Below the pieces are notes generated by a model that saw nothing but the letters and a program-made list of their open reading frames with translations, was not told where the DNA came from and did no database searches. Below, one piece after another: positions 4,309 through 14,530 of a DNA stretch of 64,000 nucleotides (position 1 is its first letter; each line of letters begins with the position of its first letter). The stretch is from positions 322,432 through 386,431 of the forward strand of contig DLIG01000021.1 of NCBI GenBank assembly GCA_002483605.1, in the 5' to 3' direction. Made by a program: the position numbers and the translations under genes. The stretch comes from Sulfurovum sp. UBA7648. Its GTDB lineage: Bacteria; Campylobacterota; Campylobacteria; Campylobacterales; Sulfurovaceae.

Positions 4309-4679
4309 TTTGTTCTTTCTGTTTTTATTTTCTATAAATATCTAGTTTTGTCATCTGAATTAGCTTTTGTTATTGTTTAAGCTCGATTGTTATTGAATTT
4401 TGATCCAAAATCTCTTTTAGATCCCTAACTAATTCAGTCTGAAAGTATTAACGCAAACCAAATCTATTGTAGAATCTATATTTAATCAGATGAATTGATT
4501 AAATTTTGTAGAAGTATCACTATTATAGCATAATTTGCTGAATATTAGGAATGTGTCGTTTGTAATGGTAAATCATTTTTTATTTAAATCAAAATAATTT
4601 TTATTTTTTATTTTATTACCTATTTATAGTTTTTAAGATAAAATTTATGACCTTAATATAATAATGGGACATTTGGTTT

Positions 4680-6221
4680 ATGGCAAAAGAAAAAAAAGTG
4701 GAAGAATTGCTAGAAGTTGCTCTATGGAAAGCGGCCGATAAGTTAAGAAAAAATATAGATGCGGCAGAGTATAAACATGTCGTACTCGGGCTTGTATTTC
4801 TCAAATACATCTCAGACAGCTTTGAAGAGGTTTACAATCAACTCTTGGAAGAAATTGATGATGGAGCAGATCCGGAAGATAAAGACGAATATAAAGCCCA
4901 AAACTGCTTTTTCGTGCCGCCAAATGCCAGATGGAATCACCTTCTATCAAATGCCAAACAGCCGCATATCGGCAAAATCGTCGATGAGGCGATGGATGAG
5001 ATCGAGAGAGAAAATCCGTCACTAAAAGGAGTTTTGCCAAAAGTCTATGCCAGAGATAATCTAGATAGCAAATCACTAGGTGAGCTTATCGATCTTATTG
5101 GCAATATCGCTCTTGGCGATGCAAAAGCCAGAAGTGCTGATGTGCTGGGTCATGTGTTTGAATACTTCCTGGGTGAATTTGCCCTAGCAGAAGGCAAGCA
5201 GGGTGGACAGTTCTATACTCCCAAAAGTGTTGTTGAACTTCTAGTAAGTATGCTAGCTCCGTATAACGGAAGGGTGTTTGATCCGTGCTGCGGAAGCGGC
5301 GGGATGTTCGTACAGAGTGAAAAGTTTGTATTGGAACATCAGGGTAAAATTAACGATATTTCCATCTACGGACAAGAATCAAACCAAACTACATGGCGGC
5401 TATGTAAAATGAACCTTGCCATCCGTGGGATAGATTCAAGTCAAGTCAAATGGAATAGTGAAGGTTCATTTCTAAACGACGCCCATAAAGACCTCAAAGC
5501 AGACCTTATCATCGCTAACCCGCCGTTCAATGTAAGCGACTGGAGCGGAGAGTTGCTCCGTAATGATGCCAGATGGAAATTTGGAGTGCCACCTGCGGGT
5601 AACGCCAACTATGCTTGGATACAACATTTCCTCTACCACCTGGCACCTACAGGGCGAGCCGGATTTGTCCTAGCCAAAGGAAGCCTTACTTCTAATACCA
5701 GCGGAGAAGGTGAGATCAGAAAAGCTCTCATCGAAGCCAATCTAGTAGACTGTATCGTCAACCTGCCGGCAAAACTATTTCTCAATACTCAGATCCCAGC
5801 AAGCCTATGGTTTATGAAGCGAGGCAGAACGACGCAAGATATCCTCTTCATAGATGCAAGAAATAAAGGGCATCTTATCAATCGCCGCACAAAAGTGCTA
5901 AGCCATGACGATATCGAAGAGATATCACAAACTTATCATAACTGGAAAACTTTTTCTCGTCATTCCGGACTTGATCCGGAATCCACTTATCAAGACATTA
6001 AAGGCTTTTGCAAGTCGGCATCGTTGGATGAAGTGAGAGCACTCGGTTATGTACTCACCCCTGGAAGATATGTAGGGCTCGAAGAGAGCGAAGATGAGTT
6101 TGATTTTAACGAACGGTTCACATCGCTTCAAAAAGAGCTGCGAGAGCAGATGAGGGAAGAGTCAGCCTTAAATGAACGGATTATCACAAATCTAGCCAAA
6201 ATCAAGGTAGGCGATGAGTAG
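4680..6221 (+). CDS. hsdM: Type I restriction-modification system, DNA methyltransferase subunit M
   Basis: HsdM N-terminal signature LWKAADKLRKNIDAAEYKHVVLGLVFLKYISD, AdoMet motif FDPCCGSGGM and catalytic NPPFN. Confidence 0.95.
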   Translation: MAKEKKVEELLEVALWKAADKLRKNIDAAEYKHVVLGLVFLKYISDSFEEVYNQLLEEIDDGADPEDKDEYKAQNCFFVPPNARWNHLLSNAKQPHIGKIVDEAMDEIERENPSLKGVLPKVYARDNLDSKSLGELIDLIGNIALGDAKARSADVLGHVFEYFLGEFALAEGKQGGQFYTPKSVVELLVSMLAPYNGRVFDPCCGSGGMFVQSEKFVLEHQGKINDISIYGQESNQTTWRLCKMNLAIRGIDSSQVKWNSEGSFLNDAHKDLKADLIIANPPFNVSDWSGELLRNDARWKFGVPPAGNANYAWIQHFLYHLAPTGRAGFVLAKGSLTSNTSGEGEIRKALIEANLVDCIVNLPAKLFLNTQIPASLWFMKRGRTTQDILFIDARNKGHLINRRTKVLSHDDIEEISQTYHNWKTFSRHSGLDPESTYQDIKGFCKSASLDEVRALGYVLTPGRYVGLEESEDEFDFNERFTSLQKELREQMREESALNERIITNLAKIKVGDE

Positions 6222-7356
6222 TTGGAAAGAGTGTAAGTTGGGGGATATTATTTCTTCAAACAATAAAAGTATTGATAAAAACTATGAATTTGAAAATATA
6301 CAATATTTAGATACTGGCTCAATTACAAATAATAAAATAGATGGTTTTCAAGAGTTTAAAATTAGTGAGGCACCAAGTCGAGCAAAAAGACTTGTTAAAC
6401 ATCAAGATATAGTTTACTCTACTGTTAGACCCATTCAAAGGCATTTTGGTTTTATTGAAAATCCAATGGAGAATTTAGTAGTCTCAACCGGTTTTTCAGT
6501 AATTGAAACAAAACAAAAATTAGCTTATCCTAAATTTATATATTATTTTTTATTGTCAAATGAAACGGTAGAGATTTTAGATGTAATTGCCGAAGCTTCA
6601 ACATCTGCTTATCCATCTTTAAAGCCATCTGATATTGAAAATCTTGATATTTCCCTTCCACCCCTTGAAGAACAAAAAGCAATAGCAGAGGTGTTGAGTA
6701 GCCTTGATGATAAGATAGACCTTCTCCACCACCAAAACCATACCCTAGAAGAACTTGCTCAGACGCTTTTTAGGCAGTGGTTTGTTGAAGAAGCAAAAGA
6801 GGAGTGGGAGGACGGAACATTTGGCGAAGTGATTGAAATTTTTGATAATAAGAGAATTCCACTTTCAAAAATGGAACGAGACAAAATGAAAGAAGGGAAA
6901 CTTTATCCATATTATGGGGCTGCACAAATTATGGATTATATTAATGATTTTATCTTTGACGGTGAATATATCTTAATGGGCGAAGATGGCACAGTAAGGA
7001 CTGAAGAAGGTTATCCTATTTTACAATACACAACTGGTAAATTTTGGGTAAATAATCATACTCATGTTTTATTAGCAAAAGAGCCTTACAGTAACTTTTT
7101 TATCTGGAATTATTTGGCAAAGAAAAATATCGATGAGATAGTAACTGGAGCAGTACAGCCAAAAATAAATCAAGGCAATCTGAAATCACTTGATTTTCCT
7201 AAATATCCTTTAGATTTAATTGAAGCTTTTAATGAACAATCACAAGCTTTTTTTGAAAAAATAAACCAAAATAAAAAACAAATCCAAATCCTTGAAAACT
7301 TGCGAGATACGCTTTTGCCAAAGCTTTTGAGTGGGGAAGCTAGGGTGAAAAAATGA
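6214..7356 (+). CDS. hsdS: Type I R-M specificity subunit S (two target recognition domains)
   Basis: 380 aa. It has a central conserved helix (LPPLEEQKAIAEVLSSLDDKIDLLHHQNHTLEELAQTLFRQWF) and a C-terminal conserved helix (ENLRDTLLPKLLSGE). Its start overlaps the hsdM stop by 8 nt. Confidence 0.9.
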   Translation: MSSWKECKLGDIISSNNKSIDKNYEFENIQYLDTGSITNNKIDGFQEFKISEAPSRAKRLVKHQDIVYSTVRPIQRHFGFIENPMENLVVSTGFSVIETKQKLAYPKFIYYFLLSNETVEILDVIAEASTSAYPSLKPSDIENLDISLPPLEEQKAIAEVLSSLDDKIDLLHHQNHTLEELAQTLFRQWFVEEAKEEWEDGTFGEVIEIFDNKRIPLSKMERDKMKEGKLYPYYGAAQIMDYINDFIFDGEYILMGEDGTVRTEEGYPILQYTTGKFWVNNHTHVLLAKEPYSNFFIWNYLAKKNIDEIVTGAVQPKINQGNLKSLDFPKYPLDLIEAFNEQSQAFFEKINQNKKQIQILENLRDTLLPKLLSGEARVKK

Positions 7357-8261
7357 ATTTAAGTATTCAAGATTTTGATTTTCTAGACGCTTTCAGTAAT
7401 TTGGGTAGTTTTACAATAGATCAGTATGGAAAAAATAAACTTGACTTATTTGTTTTAAATATTAATGCAAATGAATTTAATCTAAAAAGATTAGAAGAGT
7501 TATTAATTGATCCAATGATTGATTATTCGCTTTCAAGGAGTGTAAAAGAAGAGTATAAAAGTAGACCTGCAACTCTTACAAAAAAAGCAAAAGAAAAGTT
7601 TATTGATTATGTAAACAATAAAGGGGAATTAGGGGAATTATTGCTTTATTGTTTTTTGGAGACACATCTTAAAGCTCCAAAAATATTGTCAAAACTAGAA
7701 TTAAAAACATCAACAGGTCTTAATGTAAATGGTGCAGATGGAGTACATTTTTTAAAACTTGAAAATGGAAACTATCAGTTAATTTTTGGTGAATCAAAAA
7801 CAATTGTTGGTTTAACTGATGCCCTGACTGATGCTTTTAAATCAATAGATGAATTCAAAAGAGAAGTGAACTCTAAAGGAAATAAAAAAAGTGGCTTACC
7901 CTATGAAAAAAGTCTTATAAGTGACCATCTTAGTAAAGAGACTTTTACACAAGAGGAAAAAGATTTTATTTCAAAAATTGTTTATCCAAAAAAAGAAAAT
8001 GATTTTGAAGTTGATGATGCTTTTGGTATTTTCATAGGTTACGAAATTGCAATAGATGAAGAGGATAAAAAACTACCAAACGAAGATTTTAGAAAAAAAA
8101 TTCAAGAACAAATAAAAAAAGAAGTAGAAAGTAAATTTTCTCATATTACTAAGAAAATCAATGAGTTTAAGTTATATGGACACAGCTTTTATTTATACAT
8201 ATTACCATTAACTGAATTGGATAAGAACAGAGAAGCGATTATGCAGGGACTTCAATCATGA
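7353..8261 (+). CDS. hamA: DUF1837/HamA-like PD-(D/E)xK nuclease (putative Hachiman effector)
   Basis: 302 aa. Contains GELGELLLY, then GADGVHF (D129) and LIFGESKT (E147, K149), giving a D..ExK core. ATGA overlaps link it to the hsdS stop and the hamB start. This is family recognition by eye with no HMM run. Confidence 0.7.
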   Translation: MNLSIQDFDFLDAFSNLGSFTIDQYGKNKLDLFVLNINANEFNLKRLEELLIDPMIDYSLSRSVKEEYKSRPATLTKKAKEKFIDYVNNKGELGELLLYCFLETHLKAPKILSKLELKTSTGLNVNGADGVHFLKLENGNYQLIFGESKTIVGLTDALTDAFKSIDEFKREVNSKGNKKSGLPYEKSLISDHLSKETFTQEEKDFISKIVYPKKENDFEVDDAFGIFIGYEIAIDEEDKKLPNEDFRKKIQEQIKKEVESKFSHITKKINEFKLYGHSFYLYILPLTELDKNREAIMQGLQS

Positions 8262-10819
8262 AATATATAGACGAACTCGCAAAACAAGCTTTGGAAGATA
8301 AATATTTACATGAACTTTTTTTTAAAATAGAGCAGATTCAAGCAGAAACTTTTTTTCAGATAGAGACTCAAAAATTAGATGAAAAAGAATTGTATGACTT
8401 ATTAAGATTTGCAGACATATTATCTCGTTCTGAAATAGATGAAGCTAAAAATAAAGCATACAAAATTATAAGTTTACTGTTTGAAAAATATAGTGATAAT
8501 GCACTACTTCAAACTTTTGCAAACTCCATCATGATAAAACTTGGAAATTTTCCAGCCTTAGGTTTTATTGAAAAATTCTCAAACGCTCAGTCTAAATTAC
8601 CTTATGAAGTATTATATGAAAAGTCATTAAAAGAAGTTTTTCAAAAAATATCCCATAGTGAATTTATTTTTACAGATAGTCAATATCGTATTTTTGAAGC
8701 TTTAAAAAATAGTAATCATTTTAGTTTTTCTGGACCTACTTCTTTGGGCAAATCATTTATCATCAATGCTTTTATTAGGCATTTAATAACAGAACATAGA
8801 GGCACGGATAATCTTGTAATACTTGTTCCGTCTAGGGCATTGATAAATCAAACGGTAAACAGACTAAAGCGAGAGTTTAAAGATGTAAAAAATTACACAA
8901 TTTTAGCTCATCCAAGTGTCCCTACAATGTTCAGAAATGAAAACAGTCAATACATTTTTGTATTTACACCTGAACGACTAATAGCATATCTCTCTAAAAT
9001 AGAGAATCCAAAAATTGATTATTTATTTGTTGATGAAGCACATAAAATTATTGCAATAAAAGATACAAGAAGTCCTTTATATTATCATGCAATTTTGCAA
9101 GCGGAAAGAAAAAGTATTAAGCTGTTTTTTGCTTCTCCAAATGTTGAAAATCCTGAAATATTTTTACAGTTGTTTGAAAAAAGTCAAGACGAAAATATTG
9201 TCATTAAATCTTCACCTGTTGCTCAGAATAGATATTTTTTAGATTTGGTTGAAAATAAGTGCTTGATGTTTTCAGATTTAGACAAAGATTATAAGTTAGA
9301 TATAAATTTTACCAATAATAATTTCTTCTACTGGTTAAAAAAATTAGGGGATAAAGATAAAAATATAATTTACTGCAACTCAAAAGTAGATACCATTTTC
9401 TATGCTTTAGAATTTTCCACAAATCAACCAATAAAACAATCAAAGCATTTAGAAAGTGTCAAGGAGCTAATAAAAGAATATTTACACGATAAGTATTATT
9501 TAATTGATTGTTTAGATAGAGGTATAGCATTTCATTTTGGTAATCTTCCCCAGTTGATTCGAGAGAAAATAGAATGGCTTTTTGAAGAAAAAGAAATAGA
9601 CTATTTATTTTGCACATCAACTTTACTTGAAGGTGTAAATCTCCCTGCAAAAAATATTTTTATACTTGCTAATCAAATTGGATTATCAAAATTTACGGAT
9701 GTTGATTTTTGGAATCTTGCAGGTAGGGCTGGAAGAATGACAAAAGAGATGTCTGGTAATATAATTTGCATGAGAGCACAAGAAAATAAATGGAAGAATC
9801 AAAAAGAAGATTTAGAAGCTGTTAGAAATAAAAGTGTAAAGCCATTTGAACCGCTAATGATAAAGGGACAAAATAACTTTTTTAAAAACATTGAAGCATC
9901 TTTAACAAATAAAGATTTTTCAAACAAATCATCATCACAACCTGAAAAAGATATATGGAATTACTATGCTAATTTGATTCTAATACATGAGATAAAACAA
10001 GATGATTCTGTTTTAAGAACAAATTTTATTACAAAAAATAAAAATGCTTTAAAAATTTTACAAGAACAAAAAAAGAAAATTTCAGTACCTGAAAAAATCT
10101 TATCTGCATCATCTATGATAAAACCTAAATATCAAAATGATATATATCAAAGTTCAGATATACAAATATTGCCTTCTGATTTTAATTATGATGCAATTGT
10201 TATCGTATTGAAAAATTTAGCAAAATACTACAATTGGGAAAATGAAGAAAATGGTGGTAAAAATCCACTTTACAAGCCTTCTGAAAAAATAAAATATTAT
10301 GCTGTTTTGATGGATAGTTGGATGAAATCAAAGCCTTTAAAAATGATTATCGCCAATACAATTAATTACTATAAAGATAAAGAAAAAATTTGGGAAAATG
10401 GAAACTATGTTTCGTTTGATTACAAAAACAAACATGACATTAATAAAATTATTAATTTAGTTATCTCTGATATAGATAATATTTTGAGATTTAAGCTGAA
10501 AAACTATTTTGAAAATTATTATACATTATTAAAAGAAAAATTTGGTGTGCAAAATGCCGGTGCGAATTGGGCTGATTATTTGGAATATGGTACAACTGAT
10601 AATAAAGTAATTGAATTACAGAATATTGGTATTGCAAGGCATTTGGCTCAACATATTTTAGATAATCATGAAGATTGTTTGTTGTTTGAAAATAACTTAT
10701 TACAATCAGTGGATAAAAATAAATTGTATCAAGATTTTGATGTTGAATCTAATTTATATAGTGAATTTTGTGAGCTGTTTGGATTTGATTTAAGTAATAA
10801 AATAGGTGATAAAAAATGA
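8258..10819 (+). CDS. hamB: SF2 DEAD/DEAH-box helicase, HamB-like (putative Hachiman sensor/helicase)
   Basis: 853 aa. Motifs seen are GPTSLGKS (I), TPER (Ib), FVDEAHKI (II), FASPN (III), LLEGVNLP (V) and NLAGRAGR (VI). It sits immediately downstream of, and is translationally coupled to, the DUF1837-like ORF. Confidence 0.75.
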   Translation: MKYIDELAKQALEDKYLHELFFKIEQIQAETFFQIETQKLDEKELYDLLRFADILSRSEIDEAKNKAYKIISLLFEKYSDNALLQTFANSIMIKLGNFPALGFIEKFSNAQSKLPYEVLYEKSLKEVFQKISHSEFIFTDSQYRIFEALKNSNHFSFSGPTSLGKSFIINAFIRHLITEHRGTDNLVILVPSRALINQTVNRLKREFKDVKNYTILAHPSVPTMFRNENSQYIFVFTPERLIAYLSKIENPKIDYLFVDEAHKIIAIKDTRSPLYYHAILQAERKSIKLFFASPNVENPEIFLQLFEKSQDENIVIKSSPVAQNRYFLDLVENKCLMFSDLDKDYKLDINFTNNNFFYWLKKLGDKDKNIIYCNSKVDTIFYALEFSTNQPIKQSKHLESVKELIKEYLHDKYYLIDCLDRGIAFHFGNLPQLIREKIEWLFEEKEIDYLFCTSTLLEGVNLPAKNIFILANQIGLSKFTDVDFWNLAGRAGRMTKEMSGNIICMRAQENKWKNQKEDLEAVRNKSVKPFEPLMIKGQNNFFKNIEASLTNKDFSNKSSSQPEKDIWNYYANLILIHEIKQDDSVLRTNFITKNKNALKILQEQKKKISVPEKILSASSMIKPKYQNDIYQSSDIQILPSDFNYDAIVIVLKNLAKYYNWENEENGGKNPLYKPSEKIKYYAVLMDSWMKSKPLKMIIANTINYYKDKEKIWENGNYVSFDYKNKHDINKIINLVISDIDNILRFKLKNYFENYYTLLKEKFGVQNAGANWADYLEYGTTDNKVIELQNIGIARHLAQHILDNHEDCLLFENNLLQSVDKNKLYQDFDVESNLYSEFCELFGFDLSNKIGDKK

Positions 10820-10905
10820 CCAAACATCCAACACCATCAATCATCAGCGGACAAAAGCCATTTGTTGGAAAAAATGCAACAGTTTTAAAAGGTAACATAA
10901 AATGA
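10816..10905 (+). CDS. 29-codon bridging small ORF (MTKHPTPSIISGQKPFVGKNATVLKGNIK), hypothetical
   Basis: Its ATG overlaps the hamB TGA (ATGA at 10816-10819) and its TGA overlaps the hsdR ATG (ATGA at 10902-10905). It is below the ORF-track size cutoff. Whether it codes for a peptide or only mediates coupling is unknown. Confidence 0.3.
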   Translation: MTKHPTPSIISGQKPFVGKNATVLKGNIK

Positions 10906-13900
10906 CCAAAATAACCGAAAACGAAATAGAACTTTTCGCCATAGAACTTTTGGAAAAACTGGGATACAGTTATATATACGCTCCTGAGATGGAGAGAAAC
11001 TTCGATGAAGTAATTCTCAAAGACAGACTGCTAGACTCCATGCTCAAGATCAATCATGCTCTGCCTCATAATGTCATCGAAGATGCCATCAAACAGGTTG
11101 AACGCACAAGATCTAGTGAACTATTAACCGATAATGAAACATTTCATAAACTGCTGATCGAAGGCGTGAAAGTCGATATCCAAAAAGACGGCACCACGAG
11201 AGGCGAGTTGGTAAAACTGATAGATTTTGATGATATTGGCAATAACGACTTTGTAGCGGCAAATCAGTTTACTATCATCGAAAATGGGCAAAATAAAAGA
11301 CCGGATATCATCCTATTCATCAATGGTTTGCCTTTAGTGGTTATCGAGCTTAAAAACGCCGTTGATGAAAACGCCACGATCCGATCTGCCCATAACCAAA
11401 TAGGCACTTATAAATCCCTCATTCCTTCGCTTTTTACCTATAATGCATTTTGTGTCATCAGTGACGGGCACGAGGCAAAAGCAGGGACTATAAGTGCTGG
11501 ACTCAGCCGTTATATGGCATGGAAAAGCAGTGACGGGATAAACGAAGATTCCAAGCTCATCCCTCAGCTTGAAACACTTATAAATGGGATGCTAAATCCT
11601 CTGGTATTACTAGACTTGGTACGAAGTTTTATCGTTTTTGAGAAATCTAAAAAAGAGGATAAAAACGGCATCGTAACTATCGAGACAGTCAAAAAGCTTG
11701 CCGCGTATCATCAGTACTACGCAGTAAATAAAGCAGTGCAAAGAACAATAATGGCAAGCAGTGAAGGCGGAGATAAAAAAGGCGGCGTAGTGTGGCATAC
11801 TCAAGGAAGCGGAAAGTCGCTTTCTATGGTATTTTATACCGGCAAGATCGTATTGGCTCTCAATAATCCTACGGTAATTGTGATAACCGATAGAAATGAT
11901 CTGGATGATCAACTCTTTGATACATTTGCGGCTTCAACCGGACTGCTTCGTCAAGAACCGGTGCAGGTAGAAAATAGAGAAGATCTAAAACAAAAATTAA
12001 AAGTGGCAAGCGGTGGTGTGATATTTACCACTATTCAAAAGTTTTCTCCACAAGAGGGAAATGTCTATGATATGCTTTCCGATAGGCGTAATATCGTAGT
12101 CATCGCCGATGAAGCGCACCGCACGCAATACGGCTTTAAAGCAAAGGTAGATAAAGATACCGGAGAGATAAAATACGGTTTTGCAAAATATCTGCGAGAT
12201 GCGCTGCCTAATGCCACATATCTTGGATTTACTGGAACTCCGATAGAGAGTACGGACGTAAATACTCCTGCCGTGTTTGGAAACTATGTAGATATCTATG
12301 ATATATCTCAAGCAGTAGAAGACGGCGCGACGGTAAAGATATACTATGAGAGCCGACTTGCTAAAATCAACCTAAGCAATGAAGGCAAAGAGCTGGTACG
12401 CGAGCTTGACGATGAGCTCTCGGGTGAAAATCTGGATGATATGCAAAAAGCAAAAGCCAAATGGACAAAACTCGAAGCTTTGATAGGCAGTAAGAATCGA
12501 ATAAAAGAGATAGCAAGAGATATCGTGACTCATTTTGAGGCCAGAGAAGAAGTCTTTGACGGTAAAGGGATGATAGTCGCTATGAGCAGAAGAATCGCTG
12601 TGGAGCTTTATAATGAGATCATTGCTTTGCGGCCTGCTTGGCATAACGACGATCTTGCCAAAGGCGTTATCAAAGTCGTCATGACAGCAAGCAGTTCTGA
12701 TGGAGCCGTAATGGCAAAACACCATACCACAAAAGAGCAAAGACGCGCTTTGGCAAACAGGATGAAAGATGACAATGATGAACTGCGCCTTGTCATCGTT
12801 CGCGATATGTGGCTGACCGGGTTTGATGCTCCTTCGATGCACACGCTTTATATCGATAAGCCAATGAAGGGTCATAATCTCATGCAGGCAATCGCCAGGG
12901 TAAATAGAGTTTATAAAGATAAACCGGGCGGTCTGGTGGTGGATTATCTTGGCATTGCCAGCGATCTTAAAAAGGCTCTCTCGTTTTACAGTGATAGCGG
13001 AGGCAAAGGTGATCCTGCGCTTGCGCAAGAGAAGGCAGTAGCACTTATGCTTGAAAAGCTTGAAGTGGTATCGCAGATGTATCATGGGTTTGCTTATGAG
13101 CGATATTTCGGGCTTGATACCAGAGGGAAACTCTCTCTTATATTGGAGGCTGAAGAGCATATATTATCGCTTGAAGACGGCAAAAAAAGGTATATTGAAG
13201 AAGTTACGGCGCTCTCAAGTGCTTTTGCCATAGCAATACCTGATGACAAGGCCATGGATGCAAAAGATGAAATAGCTTTTTTTCAAGCAGTGAAAGCAAG
13301 GCTGACAAAATTTGAAAGCTCAAATGCTATAAGCGACGAAGAGATAGAAACAACCATAAGACAGGTTATCGATAAAGCGCTGGTAACTGATCAGGTGATA
13401 GATATATTTGATGCGAGCGGTATCAAAAAGCCTGATATTTCTATACTATCTGAAGAGTTTTTGATGGAAGTCAAAAATATGAAGCATAAAAATATAGCTT
13501 TGGAAGTTTTAAAAAAACTTCTTAATGACGAGATAAAAACAAGATCAAAAACAAATTTTATTCAAAGCCAGAGCCTCATGGAAATGCTTGAAAATTCCAT
13601 AAGAAAATATCACAATAAAATCATCACCGCAGTTGAAGTGATAGATGAGCTTATAAGTCTAAGCCGTGATATTAAAATAATGGATAAAGAGCCATCTGAG
13701 CTTGGACTTACTGAATTTGAATATGCATTTTACACGGCAGTGGCAAACAATGAAAGCGCACAAGAGCTGATGGGTAAAGAAAAACTCAGGGAACTAGCTG
13801 TGGTACTTTTTGAAAAGGTAAAAGAAAATGCAAGTATAGACTGGACTATCAAAGAGAGTGTCAGATCCAAACTCAAAATCGCAGTAAAAAGAACACTCAG

Positions 13901-13991
13901 ACAATTTGGCTATCCGCCGGATATGCAAGCCCTTGCGACCGATACTGTTTTGAAGCAAGCTGAGATGATAGCAAGTGAGTTGACACAATAA
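10902..13991 (+). CDS. hsdR: Type I restriction endonuclease subunit R
   Basis: 1029 aa. N-terminal nuclease motif RPDIILFINGLPLVVIELK, helicase motifs WHTQGSGKSLSM (I) and IADEAHRTQ (II, DEAH), plus TGFDAP and QAIARVNR. Confidence 0.95.
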   Translation: MTKITENEIELFAIELLEKLGYSYIYAPEMERNFDEVILKDRLLDSMLKINHALPHNVIEDAIKQVERTRSSELLTDNETFHKLLIEGVKVDIQKDGTTRGELVKLIDFDDIGNNDFVAANQFTIIENGQNKRPDIILFINGLPLVVIELKNAVDENATIRSAHNQIGTYKSLIPSLFTYNAFCVISDGHEAKAGTISAGLSRYMAWKSSDGINEDSKLIPQLETLINGMLNPLVLLDLVRSFIVFEKSKKEDKNGIVTIETVKKLAAYHQYYAVNKAVQRTIMASSEGGDKKGGVVWHTQGSGKSLSMVFYTGKIVLALNNPTVIVITDRNDLDDQLFDTFAASTGLLRQEPVQVENREDLKQKLKVASGGVIFTTIQKFSPQEGNVYDMLSDRRNIVVIADEAHRTQYGFKAKVDKDTGEIKYGFAKYLRDALPNATYLGFTGTPIESTDVNTPAVFGNYVDIYDISQAVEDGATVKIYYESRLAKINLSNEGKELVRELDDELSGENLDDMQKAKAKWTKLEALIGSKNRIKEIARDIVTHFEAREEVFDGKGMIVAMSRRIAVELYNEIIALRPAWHNDDLAKGVIKVVMTASSSDGAVMAKHHTTKEQRRALANRMKDDNDELRLVIVRDMWLTGFDAPSMHTLYIDKPMKGHNLMQAIARVNRVYKDKPGGLVVDYLGIASDLKKALSFYSDSGGKGDPALAQEKAVALMLEKLEVVSQMYHGFAYERYFGLDTRGKLSLILEAEEHILSLEDGKKRYIEEVTALSSAFAIAIPDDKAMDAKDEIAFFQAVKARLTKFESSNAISDEEIETTIRQVIDKALVTDQVIDIFDASGIKKPDISILSEEFLMEVKNMKHKNIALEVLKKLLNDEIKTRSKTNFIQSQSLMEMLENSIRKYHNKIITAVEVIDELISLSRDIKIMDKEPSELGLTEFEYAFYTAVANNESAQELMGKEKLRELAVVLFEKVKENASIDWTIKESVRSKLKIAVKRTLRQFGYPPDMQALATDTVLKQAEMIASELTQ

Positions 13992-14073: not shown

Positions 14074-14325
14074 TCAATACACCTCTTTACGATGTGCGAT
14101 CTTGGATATAAGCATCAGGTTGTTTTCCTGATAAAATATCACTCTGTAATCTCCTATACGCAATCTATAAGCGCCATCAAATGGAGTTTTTAGTTTTTTT
14201 ATCTTGGTAAGTACGGGAGTGTCTGCAAACTCTTCTATGCCGTCGAGTATATCTTTGGCTATAGAAGGGTTAAGTTTTTGCAGCTGTTTTAGTGCCTTTG
14301 GGTCATACTCTATATCATAAGCCAA
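14074..14325 (-). CDS. RelE/ParE family type II toxin
   Basis: 83 aa. The C-terminal half YRLRIGDYRVIFYQENNLMLISKIAHRKEVY is a typical RelE/ParE fold signature. It overlaps the upstream antitoxin gene by 11 nt. Confidence 0.85.
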   Translation of the reverse strand: MAYDIEYDPKALKQLQKLNPSIAKDILDGIEEFADTPVLTKIKKLKTPFDGAYRLRIGDYRVIFYQENNLMLISKIAHRKEVY

Positions 14326-14530
14326 GAGATTTTCTCACATCATCATGTTTCACCGTTTTCAATGTACCCATTTTGTATTCTTGTACAGTTTTGGTGACGG
14401 CATTGTTATCGAAATAATCCTGCAAGGCTTCTCTGATGATCTGAGTCTTTTTTTTGCCATTTTCATTTGCTATAGAATTGAGTTCATCTATGAGGCTCTC
14501 TTCTAGAGTGATAGTCATTTTTTTGGTCAT
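14315..14530 (-). CDS. Ribbon-helix-helix (CopG-like) antitoxin
   Basis: 71 aa. The N-terminus MTITLEESLIDELNSIANENGKKKTQIIREALQDYF has the RHH pattern. It lies upstream of, and overlaps, the toxin gene. Confidence 0.8.
   Translation of the reverse strand: MTKKMTITLEESLIDELNSIANENGKKKTQIIREALQDYFDNNAVTKTVQEYKMGTLKTVKHDDVRKSLGL

Follow-up and report, generated by a model that had tools for sequence, protein, structure and literature searches.

Defence genes embedded in type I restriction-modification (R-M), BREX, DISARM and Hma systems have been documented at scale (Payne, Hughes, Fineran, Jackson 2024, bioRxiv 10.1101/2024.01.29.577857). In that preprint, 96.7% of embedded genes share the orientation of their host system; backup and complementarity are discussed, co-regulation and linked transfer proposed, and the significance and mechanism of embedding are left open. 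Here we describe such an arrangement in a 64,000-nucleotide (nt) stretch of Sulfurovum sp. UBA7648 (DLIG01000021.1:322,432-386,431; hereafter the window, whose coordinates are used throughout), where the Hachiman genes hamA and hamB and a short open reading frame (sORF) stand between hsdS and hsdR of a type I R-M operon. As in the systems of Payne et al., a complete known defence system is nested in the same orientation within a system based on DNA modification. Much of the cargo in the operon family described below matches their PDC families; Hachiman is not named in the main text of the preprint (0 occurrences). Our literature search found no paper devoted to Hachiman within operons of this type, and a study of Streptococcus thermophilus defence islands gave no information on the point. 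That type I R-M loci host defence genes is already known, and a Hachiman system in this position is expected from the published surveys.

Several described systems come close to this locus. In the Escherichia coli EcoprrI locus (hsdMSR), prrC likewise places a defence effector between the hsd genes of a type I operon. PrrC occurs almost only in type I loci and, as summarized in the same preprint, is silenced physically by the R-M complex until released by the T4 Stp peptide (bioRxiv 10.1101/2024.01.29.577857). HamAB proteins of the window's subfamily, in contrast, are mostly found outside R-M loci, and no contact or trigger link is known for them. A second parallel comes from Vibrio cholerae VPI-2, whose type I R-M operon houses the GmrSD-like two-gene system TgvAB. 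This system defends without HsdR nuclease activity, and the native operon context raised its defence 10- to 100-fold, an effect that the authors of the study credit to stoichiometry and the native ribosome-binding site (PMC11411939). TgvAB resembles hamAB in being a two-gene nuclease/NTPase module inside an hsd operon, and TgvAB and its R-M host are thought to form complementary layers; however, TgvAB was tested experimentally, whereas the window locus is known from sequence alone. In the same phylum, variable ORFs also lie between hsd genes of Campylobacter jejuni, reportedly described as rlo (R-linked ORF) genes by Miller et al. in 2005; gene order and cargo set differ from those in the window, and Hachiman was unknown when the rlo genes were described. 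As for Hachiman itself, HamAB of E. coli ECOR31 defends alone, senses DNA damage and responds to it by degrading DNA (Tuck et al. 2024, PMC12278908), and in Streptococcus Pez-Ham a neighbouring toxin-antitoxin module tunes Hachiman expression, limiting its cost (PMC13064477). Both share the two-protein architecture and motifs of the window's hamAB, but they have their own promoter or a toxin-antitoxin-type regulator, whereas in the window no non-coding DNA precedes the cassette, whose expression would rely on the hsd promoter.

We interpret the locus as a type I R-M operon of a cargo-carrying family in which a hamAB cassette with no detectable promoter of its own occupies the slot between hsdS and hsdR, the chain being expressed in coupled fashion from one promoter, the sORF being a recombination scar, and R-M and Hachiman acting as independent layers; we assign this reading a probability of about 70%. 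All genes lie on the forward strand. The chain begins with hsdM (4680-6221), encoding a type I N6-adenine methyltransferase of 513 amino acids (aa), and hsdS (6214-7356), encoding a 380-aa specificity subunit with two target-recognition domains. These are followed by hamA (7353-8261; 302 aa, DUF1837) for the Hachiman effector nuclease, hamB (8258-10819; 853 aa) for the Hachiman superfamily 2 (SF2) sensor helicase, the sORF (10816-10905; 29 codons, MTKHPTPSIISGQKPFVGKNATVLKGNIK) and hsdR (10902-13991; 1029 aa) for the type I restriction subunit with an HSDR_N nuclease, a SWI2/SNF2 ATPase and a T1RH-like C-terminal domain. An earlier note on this DNA had given the six-ORF chain with these coordinates and overlaps, which direct reading of the junctions confirmed; its assignments of hsdM, hsdS, hamA, hamB and hsdR proved correct, ORF calls, Pfam and PADLOC being in agreement. 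Complete defence genes thus lie between same-strand genes of an intact host R-M system, which is an embedded cassette in the sense of Payne et al., a pattern that recurs in 45 of 56 related loci.

Successive ORFs overlap by 8, 4, 4, 4 and 4 nt. At the hsdM/hsdS junction (GGCGATGAGTAG) the hsdS ATG lies at 6214 and the hsdM TAG at 6219-6221, and an ATGA is shared at hsdS/hamA (7353-7356), hamA/hamB (8258-8261), hamB/sORF (10816-10819) and sORF/hsdR (10902-10905). Stop/start overlaps (-8, -4, -4, -4, -4) run through the whole chain, as would be expected of a coupled operon; from hsdM to the last codon of hamB every nucleotide is coding, and every start is preceded by a Shine-Dalgarno-like motif at 6-10 nt.

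The predicted products appear catalytically intact. HsdM matches N6_Mtase (PF02384, 2.5e-109) and HsdM_N and carries NPPF at residue 280 and the S-adenosylmethionine (SAM) motif VFDPCCGSG at 199, and HsdS contains two Methylase_S stretches by Pfam and a full-length PADLOC Specificity_I match. HamA was identified by PF08878 (8e-59) and PADLOC HamA1 (3.7e-115), with GADG at 127 and FGESK at 145; its D129, E147 and K149, the residues of the nuclease motif D...E-x-K, are invariant across 24 relatives. HamB matches PADLOC HamB1 over its full length (1073.8 bits) and has the motif I sequence GPTSLGKS, DEAH at 259 and AGRAGR. HsdR scores 1302.8 bits against PADLOC REase_I, contains Pfam HSDR_N, SWI2_SNF2, T1R_D3-like and T1RH-like_C domains, and its PD...ELK at 134-151, GSGKS at 302 and DEAH at 403 are invariant in the family alignment. 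By sequence, the catalytic motifs of all five proteins are intact, and the locus has the features of both a type I hsdMSR system and a type I Hachiman system (HamAB).

The slot between hsdS and hsdR is a habitual site of cargo in this operon family. A survey of the HsdR family in metagenomes yielded 56 loci containing both hsdS and hsdR (61-88% identity, plus two at 47%). The hsdS-hsdR interval measured at least 1 kb in 38 of the 56 and exceeded 150 nt in 45, and the hsdM-hsdS interval was at least 300 nt in 27 of 44 loci. The cargo is nearly always on the same strand and is diverse, 136 proteins falling into 80 clusters. Its Pfam and PADLOC families include RhuM, SLFN (Schlafen)/AlbA_2, YhcG/DUF1016, HepT/MNT, Fic, DUF3800, Abi_C, AbiEii, AAA_13 and PrrC-like ATPases, KwaB (Kiwa), GmrSD, PIN and HamA, as well as the PADLOC families PDC-S05, S23, S02, S06, S42, M23 and ThsA-like. 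Because sister operons hold dozens of unrelated cargo families at this site, the slot is generic rather than Hachiman-specific; the family habitually carries other defence genes, and the window's Hachiman is one more example. One locus (L071) has a second, unrelated Hachiman subtype in the slot (HamA 29% identical; HamB 696 aa), its hamA overlapping hsdS by 4 nt, so that Hachiman entered the hsdS-hsdR slot at least twice.

Tight packing is likewise a property of the family. Among 234 junctions in 54 loci, 103 (44%) overlap, with an overlap of exactly 4 nt in 48 cases, and another 61 have gaps of 0-20 nt, which makes the window chain the family's normal syntax. For comparison, the other same-strand junctions of the window overlap in 9 of 36 cases. 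Under the assumption of independent junctions, five consecutive overlaps would have a probability of 0.25^5 (~0.001) against the genome background and 0.44^5 (~0.016) against the operon family. The run of five is thus unusual for the genome, less so for an hsd operon of this kind.

The best candidate promoter for the whole unit is TTAAGA-18-TATAAT (4633-4662, forward strand), a consensus match only, at 10 of 12 positions, located 18 nt before the hsdM ATG within a 370-nt AT-rich intergenic region. A simple scan detected no terminator-like site between 4680 and 11803, and the whole region contained 3 such sites versus 5.6 +/- 2.5 in shuffled sequences. Promoter-like sites numbered 46 versus 39.5 +/- 6.5 in shuffles, not above chance, and hamAB appears to form a cassette with no detectable promoter of its own. 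Co-transcription and translational coupling of the chain are plausible, and one translationally coupled operon explains the locus most economically, a reading that fits the architecture of the HsdR family and the 96.7% co-orientation of embedded genes in Payne et al. All six ORFs would then be transcribed from one promoter upstream of hsdM, and termination-reinitiation at the overlapping stop and start codons would hand ribosomes from gene to gene, the sORF possibly relaying them from hamB to hsdR across an 86-nt scar. A hairpin hiding the hsdR start, which would force coupling, was searched for and not found.

A survey of HamA relatives, restricted to one genome per species, provided 67 usable loci, 59 with callable neighbours. 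When the window is compared with non-embedded relatives, DNA homology sets in precisely at the ATG of hamA and breaks off 25-35 nt short of the hamB stop, indicating that the cassette brings no upstream regulatory DNA along. An overlap of 4 or 1 nt joins hamA to hamB in nearly all related loci and is therefore intrinsic to the cassette. The hsdM/hsdS overlap of -8 or -4 recurs across the hsd family. The hsdS/hamA junction overlaps by 4 nt in the window and in L149, a locus whose HamA is 94% identical, whereas L004 and L005, in which hamAB follows an hsdS of the same hsd family, show a 3-nt gap. Four of the five overlaps in the window are thereby shown to be separate in origin: hsdM/hsdS is a family trait, hamA/hamB belongs to the cassette, and two are borne by the scar. 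The conserved hsdS 3' end (7253-7356, forward strand; C-terminal helix, ...LENLRDTLLPKLLSGEARVKK) forms a left homology arm common to other family operons; DNA homology to L004 and L005 begins at 7253 and 7269, respectively, and the three loci share this end and the central conserved region of hsdS.

Base composition and divergence do not date the arrival of the cassette. The GC content of hamAB is 26-27%, versus 41-44% for hsdM and hsdR, and we rejected this as proof of recent acquisition: in all 58 loci compared, which come from many phyla and include hosts of 50-70% GC, the GC content of hamAB falls below that of the flanking DNA (mean 0.31 vs 0.41). Because the bias travels with the cassette, the low value in the window says nothing about the time of arrival. 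The nucleotide identities between the window and L004/L005 are similar for hamAB (73-74%), hsdR (72%) and hsdM (72-73%), but as proof of co-inheritance this equality is unreliable, synonymous sites being saturated and codon bias differing.

In a neighbour-joining tree of HamA and HamB, the window, L149, L003, L002 and L001 form one group, sister to L004, L070 and L005, and the two groups together make up one Campylobacterota clade of eight. The settings within the clade vary. In L003 hamAB stands alone, and in L149 it sits in a broken hsd remnant. In L001 (7365-13494; Sulfurimonas sp. CS5) and L002 (2162-8288; a related metagenome-assembled genome), hamA overlaps the stop of an MmeI-family type IIL R-M gene by ATGA; a Schlafen/AlbA_2-HATPase_c_4 gene follows hamAB in L001, and a 489-aa ORF of the same size occupies the same place in L002. 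The L001 proteins are mosaic: HamA, HamB residues 1-200 and the last ~60 residues are window-like, whereas residues 201-800 of HamB (whole gene at 10906-13494) are L004-like, with 79-97% identity, implying that hamAB alleles recombine in nature. L149 (1684-5631) is a mosaic of another sort, in which an ORF otherwise annotated REC1/ORF6N contains, at 2083-2256, a window-like central conserved segment of hsdS (58 aa, 78% identical). Next come hsdM (643 aa) and hsdS (352 aa) of another type I system and, just ahead of hamA, a window-like hsdS 3' remnant (5537-5626), an order suggesting that the old hsdS received a second M-S module by insertion.

The sORF, which the earlier note had counted as a gene of the coupled unit, is a chimeric recombination scar and not a gene of the system. 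It has no Pfam or PADLOC match, and tblastn and blastn searches of 150 related loci returned no homologue except in L150, which is the same strain. A 12-nt direct repeat, AAAATGACCAAA, flanks it on the forward strand: the first copy (10813-10824) holds the hamB stop and the sORF start, and the second (10899-10910) holds the sORF stop and the true hsdR start. Local alignments and BLAST identified 10863-10901 (forward strand) as a fragment of a RhuM-family cargo gene, codons about 62-77, the peptide KNATVLKGNIK resembling the RhuM motif AKNATVQ(K)EGNR. In L095, L072 and L079, RhuM genes or their remnants in the corresponding gene position align with this segment, and in none of the three cases did any of 300 shuffles attain the observed score (p=0.003, the floor). 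RhuM, which forms the family's largest cargo cluster, often stands, sometimes fragmented, directly before hsdR. We conclude from the repeat and the fragment that the sORF is a copy of 12 nt of the hsdR start joined to a RhuM piece and not a conserved gene.

Related loci suggest how such a scar may have arisen. In L149, hamB ends with the same GTGATAAAAAATGACCAAA and is followed by ATGACCAAA; the 85-nt window-like hsdS 3' remnant precedes hamA and keeps the ATGA overlap with it, and no hsdR was found in the ~7 kb of contig after hamB. The hamB end and the hsdS remnant suggest a former direct overlap, so that hamB probably once overlapped the hsdR ATG directly. In L005, hamB overlaps a 19-codon ORF, MTKITENKTELLKRSIKNA (MTKITENK...), whose first seven codons copy the hsdR start and which is followed by a truncated RhuM-like gene; the latter had no match in the Pfam scan but was placed in the RhuM cargo cluster by BLASTP. 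A degenerate RhuM pseudogene remnant (…ILIYQTEDDELEQN*TVAKNATVQKN…) was also seen at 9600-9800 of L072, in a 400-nt gap before hsdR, showing that cargo decays in place. In the window, a RhuM-type cargo gene would have been stacked behind hamB, bringing a second hsdR start, and would later have been almost entirely deleted, leaving 86 nt flanked by the 12-nt duplication of the hsdR start.

That the sORF might instead encode a real small protein, or act as a regulatory leader controlling hsdR, we consider very improbable. It does have a good Shine-Dalgarno-like motif (AGGTGA, 6 nt before the ATG), runs through 29 codons without a stop and terminates right at the start of hsdR, and bridging short ORFs are enriched in the family (21 vs 7.9 expected). 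However, the searches above found neither homologue nor family, the repeat and the RhuM fragment account for its sequence, 23% of shuffles of its 82-nt interior also produce a bridging ORF, and it shows no RNA structure beyond chance (z = 0.82) and no Rfam match.

Similar leftovers recur across the family. Within 190 kb of cargo intervals we counted 8 extra copies of the hsdR start, compared with 0 in 1.29 Mb of control sequence, and in at least 11 of 55 loci tblastn detected remnants of the hsdS 3' end or the hsdR 5' end at the borders of the cargo. A short ORF bridges the upstream stop and the downstream start in 21 of 54 gaps of 30-160 nt, versus 7.9 +/- 2.1 in shuffles, a control that cannot separate frames open by descent from frames kept open by selection. 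Short ORFs formed from HsdR N-terminal (MTKLTESAIEDFA...) and HsdS C-terminal (...RDTLLPKLMSGEVRV) leftovers were seen between cargo genes at L083:8376-8531, L072:7493-7576, L073:6168-6263, L101:7572-7724, L112:3110-3238 and L119:3970-4089; they begin on the upstream stop and end on the downstream start, and in L083 HsdR and HsdS pieces are fused in frame. Among the hsdR starts of about 75 family loci, many begin ATGA, the second codon being Thr, Asn or Ser, so that a 4-nt overlap with hsdR results whenever the gene before it ends in TGA in the appropriate frame.

The sequence comparison indicates that cargo modules move between family operons with bits of the flanking hsdS and hsdR and become stacked in series. 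We tentatively extend this to a broader proposal, which we hold somewhat more apt to fail than to stand: the inter-hsd intervals would form a recombinational cassette array in which promoterless cassettes are swapped and stacked through hsdS 3' and hsdR 5' ends, the scars are kept open as relay ORFs, and coupling reaches hsdR through any number of cassettes, the window's sORF being one such relay. Remnants of hsdS 3' and hsdR 5' ends and bridging ORFs at cargo boundaries are not mentioned in the sections of the literature on embedding available to us.

Several observations weigh against our interpretation of the locus. Two of the five overlaps hold only if the 29-codon ORF is accepted as a gene, without which a gap of 82 nt separates hamB from hsdR. 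The window's own remnants are short, 12 nt for the hsdR start and about 39 nt for the RhuM match, and the proposed history of the scar leans on the clearer cases in sister loci, to which the ambiguity of the shuffle control for bridging ORFs must be added. Furthermore, an 11-of-12 promoter match lies inside hamB (9737-9765), and the AT-rich hamAB segment (26-27% GC) holds -10-like sequences, making internal transcription starts possible. The earlier note had seen neither a terminator-like hairpin nor an obvious promoter between the genes; the scan likewise detected no terminator-like site up to 11803, but with promoter-like sites at chance level and one such match inside hamB, internal promoters may exist.

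These promoter-like sequences would suit a reading in which the genes are mere neighbours, the overlaps reflecting compaction only, with hamAB and/or hsdR expressed mainly from internal promoters and no stoichiometric tie to the R-M subunits. Promoters in Campylobacterota depend mostly on the -10 element, and hamAB contains many -10-like hexamers; its GC content differs from that of hsdM and hsdR as given above, and the Shine-Dalgarno-like motif at every start would permit independent initiation. We nevertheless regard this as unlikely. Promoter-like matches do not exceed the shuffle expectation, the stretch from hsdM to the end of hamB contains no non-coding DNA, the homology of the cassette begins at the hamA ATG and includes no upstream regulatory DNA, and cargo is nearly always co-oriented (as in Payne et al.).

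A further point against independent layers is that in 7 of the 8 members of the Campylobacterota HamAB clade the cassette is immediately preceded by R-M sequence, whether hsdS, a remnant of it or MmeI, a recurrence that could reflect a functional benefit beyond hitch-hiking. One such benefit would be a functional guard, in which HamAB is held by HsdMSR and released by an anti-restriction protein, or is triggered by DNA ends made by HsdR. PrrC, the one wired example, shows that such wiring exists, and an unrelated Hachiman subtype occupies the same slot in L071. HamAB is also activated by DNA damage and prefers 3' overhangs (PMC12278908), making restriction products conceivable triggers. The wider subfamily argues otherwise. 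In 42 of the 59 Hachiman loci (about 71%) no same-strand gene lies within 50 nt upstream of hamA, and only 9 of the 59 adjoin R-M genes, a distribution far from the almost exclusive residence inside R-M loci that characterizes PrrC. The nine are L004 and L005 (after hsdS), L001 and L002 (after the MmeI-type gene), L008, L043 and L046 (8-23 nt after an HsdR) and L023 and L024 (within about 300 nt of an HsdR). The R-M partners of the closest relatives differ (two type I families and the type IIL MmeI family), which argues against a specific protein contact. In L149 hamAB persists with hsd remnants only and no hsdR in the ~7 kb beyond hamB, and the slot itself admits dozens of unrelated families. 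In addition, abortive firing at each restriction event would, we infer, cancel the benefit of non-lethal restriction. We therefore judge a guard improbable. Of the interpretation in the earlier note, the single coupled operon stands as the most economical reading, whereas a PrrC-like wiring of Hachiman to the R-M complex found no support: most subfamily loci have no tight upstream gene, the slot is generic, the R-M partners vary, E. coli HamAB works by itself, and TgvAB, the one tested precedent for a two-gene system inside a type I operon, does not need HsdR nuclease activity.

We accordingly favour R-M and Hachiman as independent layers joined in one operon. Restriction would handle unmodified incoming DNA, and HamAB-driven destruction of DNA would follow damage arising from phage replication. 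Through embedding, both systems would be inherited together and a toxic module would be expressed with its host at a low level and in fixed ratio, with no physical or signalling link between the two systems. Since HamAB is autonomous and costly, and given the TgvAB precedent, placement in a weakly and constitutively expressed operon would be sensible for such a module.

The surroundings give no tRNA or integrase signs of a large island, a reading that we considered and found unsupported: the window contains no tRNA genes and no Rfam matches anywhere, and the flanks consist of housekeeping genes and a ParDE pair. Upstream, on the opposite strand, lie genes for a transporter, a radical-SAM protein and a DEAD-box helicase; downstream are the convergent ParDE pair and a lipocalin gene. 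The ParE toxin and ribbon-helix-helix (RHH) antitoxin genes (14074-14530, reverse strand) converge on hsdR and lie 83 nt after its stop, and no terminator-like site was found between hsdR and this pair. An antisense ORF of 262 codons inside hsdR (12372-13160, reverse strand) is probably a chance open frame.

The locus adds Hachiman to the known passengers of type I R-M operons. The leftovers of hsdR starts and hsdS ends that form bridging ORFs offer a concrete explanation, open to testing, for the way in which embedded genes are gained, piled up and still expressed, and the comparative evidence from these remnants addresses a point that the literature, in the parts consulted here, leaves open. 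Annotators should note that a small ORF in an operon of this kind is often a scar and not a gene. If it is true that the coupling of hsdR depends on relay ORFs, selection would act on the syntax of these operons during the rapid turnover of their defence genes.

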